A stretch of DNA of 64,000 nt from NCBI GenBank assembly GCA_016929095.1, contig JAFGJM010000033.1, forward strand, positions 114,482-178,481, read 5' to 3'. The DNA is from Anaerolineales bacterium (GTDB taxonomy: Bacteria; Chloroflexota; Anaerolineae; Anaerolineales; UBA4823). The notes below the pieces were generated by a model. The model had not been told where the DNA came from, did not search any database, and was given only the letters and a program-made list of their open reading frames with translations. This document shows, in pieces, positions 2,354 through 17,618 of the stretch. Every line of letters begins with the position of its first letter. Position 1 is the stretch's first letter. The position numbers and the translations under genes are program-made.

Positions 2354-2409
2354 GCTTTACTTTACGATGCAAAACTCTTGCTAATATCCTTGTAGAATTA
2401 TGGAAGTAA

Positions 2410-3080
2410 ATCCTTCGGTCCTCCGCACCAAATGAACAGCTTCCGCGGGCTCCCTTCAGGCATTCGCATTGGTATGTTTATTATCACGATATCGATTTGT
2501 ATTATTCTCTATGTCACAGATCACCTCTTCCGGTTTGATCCCCCTACATTCGATATCTGTCATGGGTGGATTATACAAATCGGAGAGGCTTGTTGTCAAT
2601 TGTTGGTAATTTGAAAAGTATTGTTAGACAATTTACTAAAATTCAGCCACTTTAGATTTGTACCATGCTGCAATGGCATCATGGCAGCAAAACGCAATCG
2701 GGGGTGGGCGGGACCGCCACACAGGGGCCTTATGAAAGCCCCTGCGAGCATTGCCTTATTTTGATTTTTTGGATTCACCTATCTTTGATAGCCACTTTTT
2801 CGTGACCTGCTCAAAACGATCGAGCAATGCTCTGGAACGGCGAATATCTTCCATTTGTTGGGAAAGCCATTTGGCTTTCTGTTCTGATGTGCTTGTTTTC
2901 CAGTCCATGTATGTTCACCTCCCTTCCCGTCCGAAAAATTATTACTTTTGGAGCGCCTGCGCTCCGATATTCGCCGATTTTCACACCCGCCGAAGCGTGT
3001 CAAGGAGATCGCCGTAGGTGATCCCTTAAAGGTGCGAAGCATCCTTGACGCGCAAAGGAGGGTGTGAAGTTGGGTGGTGG
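2410..3080 (+). other. Non-coding hairpin cluster (candidate oriT / single-strand origin / structured RNA)
   Basis: Nested stems TTCACACCC(2980-88)/GGGTGTGAA(3060-68) and GCGTGTCAAGGA(2995-3006)/TCCTTGACGCGC(3042-53); inner hairpins with GTA and GAA loops; only short spurious ORFs. Confidence 0.5.
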
Positions 3081-3168
3081 GGGATATAAATAAACTGAGC
3101 CAATTTTGCCTGGCGAAGTATGCCTATTCCGATTGCGCAATATTCGGTGAAAGGTTGGGAGGTGCCTT

Positions 3169-3196
3169 TTGCGACTATGGATTTTTACGATAGAAT
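3169..3196 (+). promoter_or_regulatory. Putative sigma70 promoter of the HTH gene
   Basis: TTGCGA(3169-74)-16 bp-TAGAAT(3191-96). Confidence 0.45.
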
Positions 3197-3240
3197 CAGA
3201 AGATAATATTGTATGCAGAAAAAATTACGTACTGGGGCAT

Positions 3241-3471
3241 ATGGTGGAAGAGAACGAAAAAGACAGAAATAACCAACCTGGGTTGGATGAGTTAATTTCA
3301 CTTAGTGAGGCTTCGGAGATCAGCGGATTATCCCCAAGCCAGTTAAGGTTATTGGTTACACGGGGGGTGATTTGGGGGAAGAAGCTGGGGAGAAACTGGT
3401 TTACGACAGCTCTGGCTGTGAAAGAATATCTAAAAATGGATCATAAACCAGGGCCAAAACCACGAAAGTGA
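3241..3471 (+). CDS. Small HTH DNA-binding protein (HTH_17/excisionase-like)
   Basis: 'LISLSEASEISGLSPSQLRLLVTRGVIWGKKLGRNWFTT' plus a basic GPKPRK tail; ATG 3241 preferred to TTG 3169. Confidence 0.8.
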   Translation: MVEENEKDRNNQPGLDELISLSEASEISGLSPSQLRLLVTRGVIWGKKLGRNWFTTALAVKEYLKMDHKPGPKPRK

Positions 3472-3491
3472 ATTTGTATTTTTCCATTTCC

Positions 3492-3521
3492 TTGACAAAT
3501 GTAGGCGATATCGCCTATAAT
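3492..3521 (+). promoter_or_regulatory. Consensus sigma70 promoter with palindromic operator in the spacer
   Basis: TTGACA(3492-97)-18 bp-TATAAT(3516-21); perfect palindrome TAGGCGATATCGCCTA at 3502-3517. Confidence 0.8.
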
Positions 3522-3619
3522 AGATTTATATCTTCAATATCACCGAGTTGGGTAAATATCTTTCAATTCTCTATAGTTGTCCGGTGATTGTTCCTTTAGA
3601 TGCGAAAGGAGAGTGCGTC

Positions 3620-3640
3620 ATGGGTGGTGGATCCGGATAA
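3620..3640 (+). CDS. Putative minigene MGGGSG (alternatively 30 aa from in-frame TTG 3548)
   Basis: AAAGGAGAG at 3605-3613, then ATG GGT GGT GGA TCC GGA TAA; lies between the promoter and a terminator. Confidence 0.45.
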   Translation: MGGGSG

Positions 3641-3648
3641 ACAAGAAT

Positions 3649-3685
3649 GAGCGACAGGAACCGCGGCCTGTCGTCTCTGTTTAAT
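3649..3685 (+). terminator. Hairpin terminator between minigene and convergent gene
   Basis: CGACAGG-aaccgcgg-CCTGTCG stem followed by T/A-rich sequence. Confidence 0.55.
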
Positions 3686-3710
3686 ATTAATAAATCATTG
3701 ACTTCACTTC

Positions 3711-4388
3711 TTACCATTCCCACCTTAATACATATACTTCATATAATCTAGGTTTATCCTTTTCCCAGGATACCAGCCAACGACCATCTGATAGCTGGCG
3801 CTGGGTTTCTCGAGTAAGATCACGGGTATGTTTACGGTTGCTTTCTTCAAGTGCAAGTCGTGTGGGCGGTCTAGACTTCGGAAAGATTACATTGATCTTT
3901 ATGTGTCGAGTCGGGTGACTGATGTCTGTGCTCCAGTAGCCATCATTGGTTAAAAATCCTCGGCGGATATTCCATTGAATATTAAATTCATCGGTATCAC
4001 CACGGTTTTTTACTTCTCGGAGTGAAAGCAAGATGTAAGTCTTATATCCTGATCGGTAGCGATCCACAGGTTTGCCTCGATTGGTACGGTAATTGAGCAG
4101 GATTTCCCCATCACCCCAAGCATAATCCTGATAGGCGATTATGTTGTTTTGTAAGTATCGAATTTTTTTGCGCTTAATAAAAGTAGCTTTTGTACCATCT
4201 TGATTGTGAATCTCGAGAGTGGATTCATAATCCAAAACCTCATAAATTCCATTGTTCAATAAACTCTTGATAGTCTCTTGACCAATTTGCCACATGTCTG
4301 CAAGTAATTCCAATCCAGAGAATCCCAACAGGTTAGTCAGCCATTTAGAGATGATGCATGTTTGGGATTGATCTTCTTCCTCTGGCAT
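3711..4388 (-). CDS. Uncharacterised beta-strand-rich protein (225 aa)
   Basis: Clean ORF with an alternating beta-strand pattern (YEVLDYESTLEI, IKINVIFP, VYVLRWEW); no recognised family. Confidence 0.75.
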   Translation of the reverse strand: MPEEEDQSQTCIISKWLTNLLGFSGLELLADMWQIGQETIKSLLNNGIYEVLDYESTLEIHNQDGTKATFIKRKKIRYLQNNIIAYQDYAWGDGEILLNYRTNRGKPVDRYRSGYKTYILLSLREVKNRGDTDEFNIQWNIRRGFLTNDGYWSTDISHPTRHIKINVIFPKSRPPTRLALEESNRKHTRDLTRETQRQLSDGRWLVSWEKDKPRLYEVYVLRWEW

Positions 4389-4835
4389 AAGTTGTAGTGA
4401 ATTTGGAAAACACTACAACTAACAATAACAAATCTGAAGTTCCCTGTCTATAGAGATAAAAAATATCTATCAGGAGTAATTCTTTGAATGAGCACCAATA
4501 GAATTTGTGTAATCAATTGAGGTTTATATCCGGGTAAGATATTTTTATAATCAGTGTGGGAAAACTGGTTAGTAAAAGGAGTGGTTTAAAAACATCCGTT
4601 TTTCTCAAATTATAGGACGTATATTGGTTGTCACTCAGCTTTGCTATTATCGTTATTATTTATTGTCATGATTCATTTGAAGCTAATCAAAGGTCGCAAA
4701 AGGATGATTGTGCGCTGTGCCAAATTGTTTGACAAATATGATTCGATAAATCAATTACCTATGCAAATTCTTGTTTTCTAGCTATGATTGCTTGACGGCA
4801 TTCTTCACCAAAAAATCCAATCGAGTAGAACATAA

Positions 4836-6016: not shown

Positions 6017-6400
6017 TCAGGTTTGTGTAAGGCTGGCTCTGGATGTTGTTGATACGTTGGGCCCGCTATTTGAATCGTTGTTTGCTTCAAACGTTTTTTC
6101 ATTTTTCCGCTTATCCCCTTTTGATTGACCGTAGTATTCAATTGCATCGCTGACAATTTTCCAAAGTGGTAATACTTTACCGGTGTGTAGCCGATAATGG
6201 TTTTGGATTTCTTGTATGGTGGCAAGAGCCTTATTCGTGAGGCTTATGGTAGTTCGTACCCTGGGCTTAAGCTGAACCGAGGATATTTCATTCCCATGTT
6301 GATTTTGGAAATCACCTTCTGCATCTTCCCCCGGTTGGAATAGGATTTTCTTTCCGACCGGTTTTGGTTCGCCTAAACCCATGACATGCTTGGGATTCAT
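6017..6400 (-). CDS. Small ribbon-helix-helix centromere-binding partner of ParA (ParG-like)
   Basis: Translationally coupled to parA (4-nt overlap); disordered N-terminus, then 'RVRTTISLT..ALATIQEIQ..LWKIVSDAIEYY' ribbon-helix-helix pattern. Confidence 0.65.
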   Translation of the reverse strand: MNPKHVMGLGEPKPVGKKILFQPGEDAEGDFQNQHGNEISSVQLKPRVRTTISLTNKALATIQEIQNHYRLHTGKVLPLWKIVSDAIEYYGQSKGDKRKNEKTFEANNDSNSGPNVSTTSRASLTQT

Positions 6401-7170
6401 AGATTGAGCTCCTCAATCAACGTTTTATATGCCAGCGCTCCCTTACTACCAGGGGCAATTTCAAAGATGCTGGAAGCTCGTCCAATGGCTTTCTGCAAAT
6501 CGTTATTCTTCGGGATAATTGAACTAAGCAACAACCCGGGAAAATGTTCCATAATACGCAAGATTGTGTCACGAGTAATTGAATATGGATCCGCCTGGGT
6601 GATTAATATCCCCCGAATTTTTGGATGACTTGCATGCAATAAGACCTCCTCGCGCACCAGGCGTACGTGTTCCTGCATACGTCCAATAGCATCAAGTTCT
6701 AATTTACCCGGTGTGACCATGATTATTACCTCATCGGATGCAGCCAGCGCATTTACAGCAAGCGGATCCAAACCTTTCCCGGTGTCAATCAAGATCAGGT
6801 CATAATCCTTCTCCGAAAGGTTATCCAATAGGTGGCGTAAGCGAGTAGGACGATTGGATAGCTTCAATGCGGCGTCAGCCAGGTCTGCGTTAGCCGGGAT
6901 CAAGAAGAGGTTTGGGTAGCGCGGTGCGGGGATGATCACATTTTCTATTGGATAATGACCGATCAGCAGAGAATGAATTGTGGGGGGCAGATAACCACTC
7001 CCCGCCTCCGGAGCACGCTGACCTAATAATGCGAAGGTAACATCTGCCTGCGGGTCCATGTCGATCACCAGGGTCTTTTTACCCTGTTCAGATAAGCCCA
7101 CGGCTAGATTTGCGACGGTGGTGGTCTTACCTACTCCCCCTTTATCGTTTGTAAAAACCAATCTTTTCAT
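6397..7170 (-). CDS. parA: ParA/Soj-family partition ATPase
   Basis: KGGVGKTT deviant Walker A, IDMDPQ, ILIDT; start placed at MKRLVF (7170). Confidence 0.92.
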   Translation of the reverse strand: MKRLVFTNDKGGVGKTTTVANLAVGLSEQGKKTLVIDMDPQADVTFALLGQRAPEAGSGYLPPTIHSLLIGHYPIENVIIPAPRYPNLFLIPANADLADAALKLSNRPTRLRHLLDNLSEKDYDLILIDTGKGLDPLAVNALAASDEVIIMVTPGKLELDAIGRMQEHVRLVREEVLLHASHPKIRGILITQADPYSITRDTILRIMEHFPGLLLSSIIPKNNDLQKAIGRASSIFEIAPGSKGALAYKTLIEELNL

Positions 7171-7189
7171 AATTGAATTGATAAAAACA

Positions 7190-7345
7190 CGATGCATTCA
7201 TTGATGCCCTGACAGCTTGATACCGGTATGCAATGATGCCAAAATTGGTATCTGCCCGTGCATAATGCTGCCATGATGCGATTCTGCCATCGCATAAGTG
7301 TGAATCCATGCTGATGGATAATGACGCAAAGGTGCTTTGGCATCG
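7190..7345. repeat. Array of TGATGCC-like heptamers upstream of parA (candidate parS centromere)
   Basis: TGATGCC 7202, TGATACC 7218, TGATGCC 7234 (16-bp period), TGATGCG 7274, TGATGGA 7312, TGACGCA 7322; inverted GGTATC 7247 and GGCATC 7339. Confidence 0.6.
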
Positions 7346-7406: not shown

Positions 7407-8279
7407 TTAGTCGAGGAAGAGCAAAGGAACGGGCTCCACGCGGTCGATTCGATACCAAATAGGGGCATGTAAGATGGTATGAGAATTAATCTTCTCGAAT
7501 GTAGTAAAGTAAAACAAGCCTTTAGCTTCACCTTTGCGTGCCTGGCTGAGCATATTTTGCATACGACGCATGCCAGTCGTAACAACCAGCCAACGTCCCG
7601 AGCGGTAATTGAAGCGTTCCTCGTAGGCTTTGCTCTTAAGATAAGCAAGGCCAGGCAAGATTTTTTCTCGTAAAAAGCGGGGGTTATCTTCGGTACTACG
7701 GTCGATTTCAAGCAAGTAACGCAGGCGGTGTTCGCCGGTAGTGAGTGTGAAAAAACCATCCGGGCGTATATTTCGTTTGATTTGATTACTGTTATAAGTG
7801 TAGATGATTTTATCCGGGTAAGCCCAGAATTCACTCTCAGGGATCCATGTTTCCAGGGTAATACCAGACTCGGATTGGCAGGATGCCTCAAGGTCTATGC
7901 GGAAGTCGTTAATTGCCAGATCGTGTTCGACCTGAAACCAGCGTGGTTCTTTCCGCCAGGTGAATTCCTGTAACGGGATGCTATTCAAACTCGCAATGAT
8001 CTCCGCGCCGCGCCGATCTAGCCAATAGATCATGGCGGGTAAACGCCGACGTTGTTCCAGGTTGGGGCGATTGACATAGCGGTGCTGGTAGAGAAATTTC
8101 AAACGTGTCTCTGCCTGACTCTTTGATGTGAAAAATTTGCGTTGTATCTGGGAAAAACTCAACATACCATCAAAAGCATGGATGGCTTCAAGGATATGCT
8201 GGTCACGCTCTGTGAGGCGCATAGGTGGGGGATGTGATACCCGGCTATAGCGAGGTAAAGGCTGGTGTTGCTTTGTCAT
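7407..8279 (-). CDS. Replication-relaxation family (MOBC-type) relaxase
   Basis: N-terminal wHTH 'LTERDQHILEAI', 'HDLAINDF', PD-(D/E)xK-like 'IRPDGFF...LLEIDRSTE'. Confidence 0.85.
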   Translation of the reverse strand: MTKQHQPLPRYSRVSHPPPMRLTERDQHILEAIHAFDGMLSFSQIQRKFFTSKSQAETRLKFLYQHRYVNRPNLEQRRRLPAMIYWLDRRGAEIIASLNSIPLQEFTWRKEPRWFQVEHDLAINDFRIDLEASCQSESGITLETWIPESEFWAYPDKIIYTYNSNQIKRNIRPDGFFTLTTGEHRLRYLLEIDRSTEDNPRFLREKILPGLAYLKSKAYEERFNYRSGRWLVVTTGMRRMQNMLSQARKGEAKGLFYFTTFEKINSHTILHAPIWYRIDRVEPVPLLFLD

Positions 8280-12218: not shown

Positions 12219-13700
12219 TCAGACTAATTTTTCGGCAGGATGCGATTCGTCATCATCAAATAAAAACTTCCAAAAAGATCGCTCAGCAATCTCCTCTTCT
12301 ACTTCTTTACGAGTTCGTGCAAGATGTCGCGAATTTTCGCGTATTTTGTCAGCTATTTCCTTATTCCAACTATCCATACCAAGATCTTCTGTAACAATCT
12401 TATGCTCAACCAGGCGAGGTAATTGATCTTTTTCTGATGGTATGTTGATCAAACGGGACCAGGCTTGGTAATTGGGAAGTATGGAAAGTTGGTTCGCCAT
12501 TTCAGCTTCAACATCGTTATACGGTCGTCGTGGAAGTTCTACTTCTTGATATAGCTTTCCTTCATCAGTTTTCAACTCAGTTTCAATCAGAAAATTCATT
12601 CCCTGGTATTCATAATCTCTATATACAGGTTCAACACGGGTGTCAGCTGATGGCGGGGTGTTGTCAAATTGGCTCGCTAATTCGTAGCTATCTCGAACGG
12701 TTACTCGAAAAACAACCAGATTCCCGACATTTAGAGTAGACCCCTTACTTAGAAGATCCAATTGATCACGGAACTGATGAGCGACGACTACATCTACGGC
12801 ATACTTGCGTGCTTCGCTTTGTAAGATGGAAAAACTTTCGGTTGCAAAATTCTGAAACTCATCTACAATCAGATGGAATGGACGGCGTTCTCCCTTTGGG
12901 ATTGACCGGCGTTGTAGTGCAGCGATCAGCATCAAGTTTACCAGGACCGAGCCCAGAAGCGAGGAGTTCACTTCACCCAGGTCACCTTTGGATAGGTTAA
13001 CAAATAAGATCTTGCCATGATCCATCAATTGTCGCAGATCAATTGTATTTTTCGACTGACCAACGATGTTGCGCATACTGATATCCGTCACAAATGGGCT
13101 GATCTTATTCAATGTAGAACTGGTTAGCTCATAGCGAAGCTTCTCACTCCTTGGGAAAGTCTCCCAGAATTGCTTCAGGATCGGGTCTTCAAGAACTTTT
13201 ACCAGTTTCTCGTGATGTTCTTTTTTGGAGTTTAGTAACTCTATCAGCTCTTTAAAAGTGGTGTCATCGTATTGCATGACTGTGAGGAGCGTATGCCTCA
13301 AAACATGTTCCAGTCTTGGCCCCCAGGAATGCGAGAACAAACGTCCCAAGGTGCCCATGACTGTCGAGACCACCCAACGTACCTGGAATGGATCCTTACG
13401 GTCACAAGACAACAGGTTCAATCCGAATGGTCTTTCGATGTCCATGGGATCAAATAAGATGACATCGTCCACTCTTTCTGGCGGCACTAAACCAAGCATG
13501 TCATCGATCAAATCTCCATGAGGATCGATGACGCAAAGTCCATGCTCCTTATCTTGATGCATATCCTGGTAGATCATGTTTTTCAACAGCGTAGATTTCC
13601 CAGTTCCGGTGGTGCCGATAATGTACGTACCCTGGCGGCGCTCATCTAAAGATAATTCTACATGTGATCCATCGTCAATACTTGTCCCTAACCTTAGCAT
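12219..13700 (-). CDS. VirD4/TraD-like coupling ATPase without transmembrane anchor
   Basis: GTTGTGKST Walker A, VIDPHGDL, LIVDEFQNF Walker B, 'SEARKY..AHQ..QL'; GGAGG before ATG 13700. Confidence 0.85.
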   Translation of the reverse strand: MLRLGTSIDDGSHVELSLDERRQGTYIIGTTGTGKSTLLKNMIYQDMHQDKEHGLCVIDPHGDLIDDMLGLVPPERVDDVILFDPMDIERPFGLNLLSCDRKDPFQVRWVVSTVMGTLGRLFSHSWGPRLEHVLRHTLLTVMQYDDTTFKELIELLNSKKEHHEKLVKVLEDPILKQFWETFPRSEKLRYELTSSTLNKISPFVTDISMRNIVGQSKNTIDLRQLMDHGKILFVNLSKGDLGEVNSSLLGSVLVNLMLIAALQRRSIPKGERRPFHLIVDEFQNFATESFSILQSEARKYAVDVVVAHQFRDQLDLLSKGSTLNVGNLVVFRVTVRDSYELASQFDNTPPSADTRVEPVYRDYEYQGMNFLIETELKTDEGKLYQEVELPRRPYNDVEAEMANQLSILPNYQAWSRLINIPSEKDQLPRLVEHKIVTEDLGMDSWNKEIADKIRENSRHLARTRKEVEEEIAERSFWKFLFDDDESHPAEKLV

Positions 13701-13862
13701 GTCAATCCTCCACGTCGGATATATAAGAATTATAGTCATAGATTGAAAATTGGGGAAATATTTAACAATTAAAAATGGAAATCTCGAGTAAACTTATTTT
13801 AAGTGGTGAGCCTTGTACCTTAATAACTACATTTAAGCTGCCCAAGGAGGAGGTGAATTATT

Positions 13863-17588: not shown

Positions 17589-17618
17589 ATTATAATTCCC
17601 GATAGATTGTGGTGTCAA
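17589..17618 (-). promoter_or_regulatory. Consensus promoter for the initiator, divergent from the lexA-like pair
   Basis: Minus strand TTGACA(17618-13)-18 bp-TATAAT(17594-89); the ATTATAAT core also gives TATAAT on the plus strand (17591-96). Confidence 0.65.

Follow-up and report, generated by a model that had tools for sequence, protein, structure and literature searches.

Recurrence of a small HTH gene, a palindrome-overlapped promoter and a glycine-rich mini-ORF with an unannotated family of beta-domain proteins in Chloroflexota

The locus considered here lies in a 64-kb stretch of Anaerolineales bacterium contig JAFGJM010000033.1 (GCA_016929095.1), which is called the window throughout and to whose numbering all window coordinates refer. 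A gene for a small helix-turn-helix (HTH) protein is followed by a consensus promoter, a Shine-Dalgarno (SD) sequence, an open reading frame (ORF) of six codons and a hairpin, and a gene for a 225-aa protein converges on them from the other side. A first-pass annotation of this DNA had proposed that the HTH gene, an operator-gated promoter, the Gly-rich minigene and the convergent gene form an undescribed module, whose peptide or transcript might be a ligand, a toxic minigene or a small RNA. The HTH gene, TTGACA-18-TATAAT, a 16-bp palindrome, the SD sequence, the mini-ORF and the terminator-like hairpin were all located where it had placed them. The parts of the locus are as follows.

3241..3471, + strand: small winged-HTH gene, 76 aa, Xis/MerR-like, with a C-terminal KPGPKPRK tail (from the ORF list)
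3492..3521, + strand: consensus sigma-70-type promoter TTGACA-18-TATAAT, with TTGACA at 3492-3497 and TATAAT at 3516-3521 (12/12 match)
3502..3517, no strand: perfect 16-bp palindrome TAGGCGATATCGCCTA, putative operator, filling the spacer and overlapping the -10 box
3528..3690, + strand: predicted small transcript of ~150-160 nt, its start placed from the -10 box and its 3' end past the hairpin
3532-3535, + strand: CTTC near the predicted transcript start
3604..3613, + strand: SD sequence GAAAGGAGAG, in which AAGGAG ends 8 nt before the ATG
3620..3640, + strand: mini-ORF ATG GGT GGT GGA TCC GGA TAA, read as MGGGSG
3651..3684, no strand: GC-rich hairpin (3651-3674) with stem GCGACAGG/CCTGTCGT and loop AACCGCGG, followed by a T-rich tail
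3711..4388, - strand: convergent gene for the 225-aa partner protein (from the ORF list)
4422..4430, - strand: extended -10-like TGTTATTGT, ~33 nt before the start codon of the 225-aa gene and probably part of its own promoter

Within the window, TTGACA-N18-TATAAT with at most one mismatch occurs three times against 0.53 expected (1/100 shuffles gave three), and the palindrome at 3502-3517 is unique even at three mismatches (0.18 expected). The decisive evidence for the module is its recurrence at other loci. The protein hits amounted to 98, the loci fetched comprised 26 from genomes and 66 from metagenomes, and at least 150 nt of downstream flank was available in 89; promoters and mini-ORFs were called with purpose-written scripts and stated filters. 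An SD sequence, ATG and Gly/Ser/Thr mini-ORF adjoining the partner gene on the opposite strand was found by filter in 74 of these 89 loci, and a mini-ORF with a GGGGG-type SD that the filter had missed (L099) raises the adjoining cases to 75. Intact cassettes of HTH gene, promoter, mini-ORF and hairpin are displaced by 0.8-1.7 kb at six further loci (L020, L023, L024, L028, L059 and L064), which brings the total to 81/89. The proposed module is borne out by this recurrence, in which the HTH gene, the palindromic promoter and SD-M-G-G-x-S-G-stop return with synonymous variation. Among the loci without a cassette, four are on contigs of at most 1.5 kb (L048, L054, L056 and L100), L026 and L045 have none in the DNA available, L094 has a replaced mini-ORF start codon and a broken partner gene, and L096 is a broken, error-prone contig. 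ATC also takes the place of ATG in L061, a locus with a short flank. The module is kept down to 25-33% protein identity (L011, L012, L014 and L015). Because the loci share descent, the locus counts are not independent events.

A second copy was identified in the same genome, on contig C29. There, a paralogue of the 225-aa protein (57% identity) has the same layout: a 79-aa HTH protein that shares the KPGPKPRK tail, TTGACA-18-TATAAT whose spacer repeat differs, the SD sequence GAAAGGAGG, the mini-ORF ATG GGT GGT GGA AGT GGT ACC TAA (MGGGSGT), a similar hairpin and the convergent partner gene. The Ser codon is TCC in the window copy and AGT in the C29 copy. The Gly/Ser/Thr mini-ORF filter gave 23 matches on both strands of the 7.8 Mb of this genome, among which the GGGSG type is represented by the two modules only. 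With a stricter pattern, the class comparison, consisting of this genome and 400 others, gave two matches in this genome and 0/400 in the others, and the reversed control gave 0. In the literature searched, MGGGSG was found as a synthetic linker only.

The mini-ORF statistics were drawn from 71 non-identical loci with 25 peptide variants. The mini-ORFs are 5-14 codons long, mostly 6-7, and include MGGGSG (22 loci), MSGGSGT (11), MGGGSGT (8), and MGGGSGG, MGGGTGT, MSGGTGS and MSGGGGT (3 each); the most divergent peptides are MDGGGSGT, MEGGGSGGG, MNGGGGNGGK, MKSGGSGT and MKGLGSGT. The ATG is invariant and the SD positions -15 to -9 (AAAGGAG) are conserved; the 3' end of 16S rRNA was not found in this metagenome-assembled genome. 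Codon positions 1 and 2 are much more conserved than the third positions or the spacer between SD and ATG, with entropies at positions 1/2/3 of 0.11/0/1.0 bits in codon 3 and 0.40/0.46/1.16 bits in codon 4. Ser is encoded by AGC (24), TCT (21), TCC (16), AGT (11), TCA (6) and TCG (2), Thr can stand in for Ser, the final Gly of MGGGSG uses all four Gly codons, and TAG (35), TAA (29) and TGA (7) all serve as stop codons. Judged by these patterns, the mini-ORF evolves like a coding sequence. The first-pass annotation had also considered an in-frame version of 30 aa. This is open in the window and is not supported by the related loci, where an in-frame stop lies within 10 codons upstream in 19/71 and no in-frame upstream start is present inside the transcript in 33/71.

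In 70 related loci with upstream DNA, the promoter scores 12/12 in 41, 11 in 15 and 10 in 8, with a spacer of 18 nt in 34 loci and 17 nt in 30. At every locus an inverted repeat in the spacer runs into the -10 box (ATTATA-xxxx...xxxx-TATAAT), and its inner arms vary among loci, yet match each other. The HTH ORF ends between -12 and +36 nt relative to the -35 box in nearly all related loci, with the TGA stop frequently inside TTGACA. No terminator lies between the HTH gene and the -35 box, and therefore read-through from the HTH gene is likely. The 76-aa HTH protein matches Pfam MerR, HTH_17 and MerR_1 at E 0.016-0.052, all under the curated cut-offs, and the PHROG excisionase phrog_2655 at E 9.3e-6. 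When 55 loci (HTH alignment A4, 55 sequences) were sorted by the four bases before TATAAT, the recognition helix was found to follow the arm: S-P-N/S-H/Q-LRLLV with CGCC (10/11), DHLRRLVR with CGGG (5/5), DHLRRL[A/M] with CGTG (4/4), FTTRHLR with CGGA (3/3), and TQEHLxxLIR with CAAA, that is, CTTTG arms (3/4). Helix classes that track the half-site, in counts that leave kinship aside, fit the pattern expected of an HTH protein reading the repeat, and the earlier proposal that the HTH protein binds the palindrome gains support from this covariation. Because the operator covers the -10 box, the HTH protein would probably act as a repressor.

The mini-ORF is tied to the partner protein rather than to the HTH protein. 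In the phylum sample of 401 genomes (species representatives), the partner family is present in 4-5 and HTH relatives are present in 98, and among 31 HTH-like ORFs a Gly mini-ORF was found by a Gly-rich filter in 3/3 with a family neighbor and in 0/28 without one. The Gly mini-ORF thus belongs with the beta domain of the partner, even at 25-33% identity and where the N-terminus is swapped. Wherever one genome carries two scored copies, these are distinct from each other in peptide as well as in operator (5/5 genomes). HTH relatives precede gated promoters of other cargo, so the HTH cassette looks like a more general switch. At L141 and L142 (genome G235), a similar HTH gene and palindrome-gated promoter are followed directly by CheY-like receiver ORFs. 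At L121, L122 and L126, the HTH relatives have an IPKKYR tail, and the TTGACA-like promoters behind them, whose spacers contain palindromes, drive a conserved GC-rich RNA-like stretch of ~100 nt (atgaaatgacg...ggtgctggtaacacc...) with no Rfam match.

The 225-aa partner protein matches no family in Pfam, NCBIfam, PADLOC or PHROG, its ESM Atlas matches are to clusters of 'hypothetical protein' only, and no relative was found in viral contigs. Its family comprises 821 proteins at E<=1e-3 (778 cluster representatives), all of them unnamed, whose source names point to Anaerolineae and Chloroflexota. The structure model used has a pLDDT of 91.2 and was built with the deeper alignment of 61 partner-family sequences (A2); a shallow alignment had given 57. 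In this model, helices 8-21 and 26-44 precede an all-beta domain at 46-225, and the N-terminal part (residues 8-44) forms an amphipathic helical hairpin. The description of the protein as all-beta and of no recognised family thus holds for the absence of a family match and for the larger domain, but not for the two N-terminal helices. The modeled residues 46-225 share the fold of the M1 aminopeptidase N-domain and of ribophorin I. Foldseek gave E 7e-8 (TMq 0.42-0.48) against the N-domain of M1 aminopeptidases and LTA4H, and VIA gave Z 11-12.3 against M1/LTA4H-type domains, Z 12.0-12.3 with a root-mean-square deviation of 2.7-3.3 over ~160 residues against LTA4H and ERAP1, Z 14.5-14.8 against the ribophorin I/OST1 N-domain, and Z ~12 against the structural-genomics proteins 4g2a and 3kd4. 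Sequence identity to these fold relatives is 6-14%. The protein is not a member of peptidase family M1, since only the fold of the beta domain is shared and the chain ends at residue 225; it has no catalytic thermolysin-like domain and no Pfam Peptidase_M1_N match. Complex prediction for the HTH and 225-aa proteins gave no verdict (score 0.00).

The N-terminal modules set the family apart from M1 enzymes and ribophorin I, as helical, transmembrane (TM) or Schlafen types are specific to it. A Schlafen AlbA_2 N-terminus was detected in the family members P0177 (E 2e-18) and P0196 (E 1e-17), and also in the 320-aa partner of L111 (E 1.3e-18), where the HTH gene, the gated promoter and a mini-ORF (MEGGGSGGG) are kept. 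TM-like N-terminal helices were found in 18/61 aligned members, with two helices in 11 of them; no TM-type member occurs in the phylum sample. Effectors of abortive-infection and toxin-antitoxin (TA) systems are usually built in this way, from one constant domain and a choice of membrane or nuclease-like modules. Upstream of the partner start codon, a TTTGCTATnGT or TTGTTATTGT-like motif was seen by eye at a distance of 25-40 nt in many related loci. The 225-aa gene of the window has no obvious SD sequence. A perfect 10-bp inverted repeat, AGTTGTAGTG / CACTACAACT (4390-4420), abuts its start codon; this repeat is absent from the same place in related loci and has a chance-level Rfam match to mir-67.

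The small RNA is also conserved outside the mini-ORF. In an alignment of 50 long-type transcripts (A3), the conserved elements are GCTTC near the predicted start, the SD sequence, the ORF and the hairpin; in 48/64 loci, CTTC is no more than 18 nt away from the -10 box. The hairpin has the form GGCGACAGG-xACCGCGGx-CCTGTCGYC, and its 10-pair stem is paired in 95.6% of cells with compensatory change at 10/10 pairs, values that 0/500 shuffles reach. CCGCGG occurs within 60 nt after the mini-ORF stop in 48/71 loci. The whole predicted RNA of this locus folds no better than shuffles (z -0.75). No Rfam family reaches the gathering threshold in the window, with chance-level matches only around the locus, and three metatranscriptome runs from the same study gave one unrelated 35-nt piece only. 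A 5' stem (TCACCG/CGGTGA) had been suggested earlier; its letters are present, but it falls outside the minimum free energy fold and is not conserved. Two further pairings were rejected: a 5'-CUUC / GAAG-3' clamp that would enclose the mini-ORF is weak (paired in 74% of cells only), and a pairing of GGCCG in the untranslated region (UTR) with GGYGG in the ORF has no compensatory change. In the leader, the palindrome TGACGGCCGTC is present in 32/64 loci (window 3579-3587), and the window carries GTCCGGTGA instead. Neither this palindrome nor the CCGCGG loop (window 3659-3666) is explained by any of the models considered. The 6-7 short variants lack the hairpin, their leaders measure 24-31 nt, and the stop codons of mini-ORF and partner are 2-4 nt apart. 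The invariant core of the cassette therefore consists of promoter, operator, SD sequence and mini-ORF.

The position of the hairpin bears on two rival explanations. By its sequence, the window hairpin is terminator-like and would be a bidirectional terminator between two convergent units. With this geometry and a shared hairpin, the promoter might fire toward the 225-aa gene and silence it by convergent transcription or, as in type I TA loci of plasmids, by pairing through the hairpin, while the mini-ORF would merely load ribosomes and so stabilize the RNA. In the short variants, which have no terminator before the nearby partner stop codon, the RNA must indeed enter the partner gene as antisense, and ribosome binding stabilizes the mccA RNA (PMC4231749). 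This explanation is nevertheless improbable, since at six loci or more the cassette is complete, hairpin included, but is separated from the partner gene by 0.8-1.7 kb that hold other genes, the hairpin terminator precedes the partner gene in most loci, and a stabilizing ORF needs no conserved amino-acid sequence or length. Alternatively, the mini-ORF might be a leader peptide of an attenuator or translation sensor, in which ribosomes on the Gly codons upstream of the hairpin decide termination and report glycyl-tRNA or translation status. The mini-ORF stop lies 10 nt before the window hairpin, so that a terminating ribosome would overlap its 5' arm; a co-directional gene follows the hairpin in L023, L028 and L064, and ribosome-controlled termination is documented for the mccA unit (PMC4231749). 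In most loci, however, the partner gene converges on the hairpin and nothing co-directional follows it. The spacing between stop and hairpin is variable, classical leader peptides are longer, and Gly is mixed here with Ser and Thr. Such a sensor is very improbable.

We tentatively favor a different reading, possible rather than probable, in which a free fMet-hexapeptide targets the beta domain of a modular effector. The cassette, borne on mobile elements of Anaerolineae and of other Chloroflexota, would have three parts. A Xis/MerR-like winged-HTH protein of 70-100 aa would bind the inverted repeat of the spacer and -10 box and gate the promoter, most likely as a repressor. The promoter would drive a short RNA with a strong SD sequence, AUG and a translated ORF of 6-8 codons, giving the product M-[G/S]-G-G-[S/T]-G-[T], which probably retains its formyl-Met because it is so short; the RNA would usually end in the GC hairpin, acting as transcription terminator and message stabilizer. 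The peptide would be the functional product, with the C-terminal beta domain, which is constant among the partners, as its target; the effector would be the partner's N-terminal part, which varies (an amphipathic hairpin, a pair of TM helices or Schlafen AlbA_2). The whole would be a peptide-receptor-effector module gated by a repressor, a kind of toxin-antitoxin or abortive-infection system, with any toxicity putative. A peptide product is favored because selection spans the entire peptide and its length, because it is the beta domain, and not the HTH protein, that the mini-ORF accompanies, because this linkage outlasts physical separation and effector swapping, and because co-resident copies differ in peptide and operator in all five genomes. 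Whether the peptide would be an activator released as a burst signal or a labile antidote that keeps the effector off is nearly balanced, with a slight lean to activation. In an extended form, which we consider unlikely, the fMet-hexapeptide would serve as a second messenger produced by ribosomes. Phage attack, for example, or the loss or transfer of the element would set off a derepressed burst of mini-ORF RNA and with it much fMGGGSG-type peptide, which would bind the beta-sandwich receptor and switch on the swappable effectors (membrane hairpin, TM helices or Schlafen-type nuclease), and the differing operators and peptides would insulate co-resident copies.

Several observations weigh against the peptide as the functional product. 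At L140 (G235:C21), an HTH gene and gated promoter are followed by a hairpin, an SD sequence with the mini-ORF ATG AAA GGC GAC GAC GGC TAA (MKGDDG) and a second hairpin; over a distance of 1.8 kb, no protein of the 225-aa family could be detected. The codons are not chosen at the level of amino acids alone: Gly before Gly is GGY in 129/131 cases, a bias that can be explained because SD-like GGRGG words are avoided, and the last Gly of the run is GGA in 86/138 against 21% genome-wide, for which GGRGG avoidance cannot account. The hairpin stem, the CCGCGG loop and the UTR palindrome GACGGCCGTC (32/64 loci) are conserved in sequence and not in structure alone, which points to a possible function at the RNA or DNA level outside the peptide model. 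The beta fold is widespread, and fold likeness shows no function. Peptide classes may reflect mere descent, as the covariation counts ignore phylogeny. Finally, a Gly-rich hexapeptide has few side chains for specific recognition. Oligoglycine is recognized by narrow grooves, as in the SH3b domain of lysostaphin, and peptide N-termini are recognized by M1 domain I.

A known arrangement close to this one is found in the CreT RNAs of CreTA modules, among them the haloarchaeal CreT that sequesters Arg or Ile tRNA. CreT RNAs have a strong repressed promoter, an efficient SD sequence and AUG, a mini-ORF of 4-6 codons with two consecutive like codons and a stable downstream stem-loop (PMC8501985). 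The Pseudomonas aeruginosa CreT, or 'proline-codon toxin', requires an SD sequence, a 15-nt mini-ORF with two Pro codons (synonymous codons are tolerated) and a GC hairpin (bioRxiv 10.64898/2026.06.02.729485). The cassette likewise has the SD sequence GAAAGGAG 8 nt before an invariant ATG, a mini-ORF of few codons and then a stable GC stem-loop, all within a short RNA. By analogy, a derepressed RNA with SD sequence, AUG, Gly-Gly(-Gly) mini-ORF and hairpin might tie up ribosomes or translation factors as the Pro-Pro toxin does, with the HTH protein as antitoxin and the 225-aa protein as an accessory or safeguarded cargo. This is doubtful, but several features agree with it: the architecture matches the described CreT RNAs element by element (PMC8501985), two to three consecutive Gly codons form an invariant GGY-GGA core, the hairpin has compensatory changes, the operator lies over the -10 box, the neighborhoods are those of mobile elements and TA genes, and the mini-ORF cassette of L140 stands without a family protein. 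On the other side, the activity of CreT resides in two consecutive rare (AGA or AUA) or Pro codons; the 2-3 Gly codons here are non-rare, and any activity in them is putative. Gly codon use in the genome is even (GGT 0.27, GGC 0.32, GGA 0.21 and GGG 0.20), and tRNA-Gly GCC and tRNA-Gly UCC are both present; sequestration of tRNA through rare codons was set aside because of this even usage. Selection extends beyond the Gly pair to the entire 6-8 residue peptide and its length, Ser alternates between codon boxes read by different tRNAs, the hairpin is absent in the 6-7 short variants, and the strict linkage of the mini-ORF to the beta domain of a dedicated 225-aa partner across swapped N-termini would be left unexplained. 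Also unlike CreT, the presumed repressor is a small HTH protein on a palindrome and not CreA-guided Cascade; no CRISPR or CreA component accompanies the module, which stands outside CRISPR-Cas loci (Cas1/Cas2 near 1/16 scanned loci, L037). No described module combining a mini-ORF, glycine codons, an RNA toxin and a hairpin was found in the literature searched.

The reading we favor, in which the peptide is the product, has a parallel in mccA, the precursor gene of microcin C, where a free peptide made from an RNA of SD sequence, 7-codon ORF and terminator is the functional product (PMC4231749; PMC6495379). The two share a very short ORF with its own SD sequence and an intrinsic terminator after it in an abundant short RNA, with the abundance predicted for the module, but MccA sequences are not conserved, whereas the module peptide is. 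The microcin C precursor has 7 residues, the last of them Asn, and its gene lies beside one for an MccB adenylyltransferase. None of the 25 module peptide variants ends in Asn, and no MccB/ThiF-like enzyme and no export or immunity genes were seen among the window ORFs and the 82 neighbor ORFs. Separate small regulators and effectors are also known from other TA loci on mobile elements. Both omega-epsilon-zeta and par of pAD1 have them, and the par units are convergent and share a bidirectional terminator. The module is likewise built of a separate small regulator and an effector on mobile elements, but its small partner is a hydrophilic peptide of 6-7 aa, neither a folded antitoxin nor a hydrophobic toxin, and no homology to three-component or type I TA loci was found. 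The small hydrophobic membrane peptide that marks type I TA is lacking, as module peptides consist of Gly, Ser and Thr. Arbitrium-like signaling, with a secreted pre-pro-peptide that a TPR-HTH receptor senses, does not apply either: the ORF of 6-7 codons has no signal sequence, its longer in-frame version is not conserved, and the 76-aa HTH protein has no TPR.

A neighbor scan covered 82 ORFs of 16 loci. ParA-type ATPases were found at L019, L022, L030 and L038, DUF2958 at 5 loci, DUF3276 at 2 and AbiEii at 2; further neighbors include a TrwB/TraG coupling protein, FtsK/SpoIIIE, SSB, a DDE transposase, and HsdM and other DNA methylases. In the window, ParA (6397-7197) and a Replic_Relax protein (7407-8279) are present, and the C29 paralogue adjoins a PIN/antitoxin-like pair, as read by eye from the ORFs. 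This context indicates that the module is, by its neighbors, cargo of mobile elements and of defense and TA islands. At 12219-13739 (- strand), a 506-aa ORF matches PADLOC mad8 (E 2.7e-17) and HerA/DndH-type ATPase models; together with the nearby ParA and Replic_Relax, it gives the leftmost 14 kb of the window the appearance of a mobile or defense island. Between the mini-ORF hairpin and the partner stop of the six displaced loci lie AbiEi/AbiEii pairs, a 235-aa protein ('MISGVQVDAW...') and a 281-aa protein, and this gap looks like a cargo hotspot that accepts inserts. Two other perfect copies of TTGACA-18-TATAAT are present in the window. One (2599..2570, - strand) lies in the non-coding gap 2354-3240. 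An ATG 6 nt past its -10 box opens a 35-aa Cys-containing ORF, MTDIECRG... (2456-2563), which suggests a leaderless mRNA, and the unit 2456-2599 (- strand) is convergent on a 700-aa PD40-repeat gene. The other copy is at 17589-17618 (- strand).

Gene callers miss genes as short as six or seven codons, and a role has been demonstrated for few of them; the main examples in the literature found are mccA and the CreT mini-ORFs. The present case, apparently an undescribed control or toxin module based on a peptide or on translation, is a family with full expression signals, coding-type conservation at no fewer than 71 distinct loci, a covarying repressor-operator pair and a dedicated partner with swappable, effector-like N-termini. 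The set of modules also offers apparently orthogonal small repressor/operator pairs on consensus promoters. If the peptide were a second messenger, defense or addiction signaling would be carried out by an unprocessed gene-encoded peptide of 6-7 residues, and its genes would be among the shortest conserved protein-coding genes known. If the peptide is a ligand, it would bring a new logic for toxin-antitoxin or anti-phage signaling, and if the RNA is a toxin, the CreT principle would reach beyond CRISPR-Cas and extend to glycine codons. Either way, the module opens a first way into the function of a family of more than 800 unannotated proteins.

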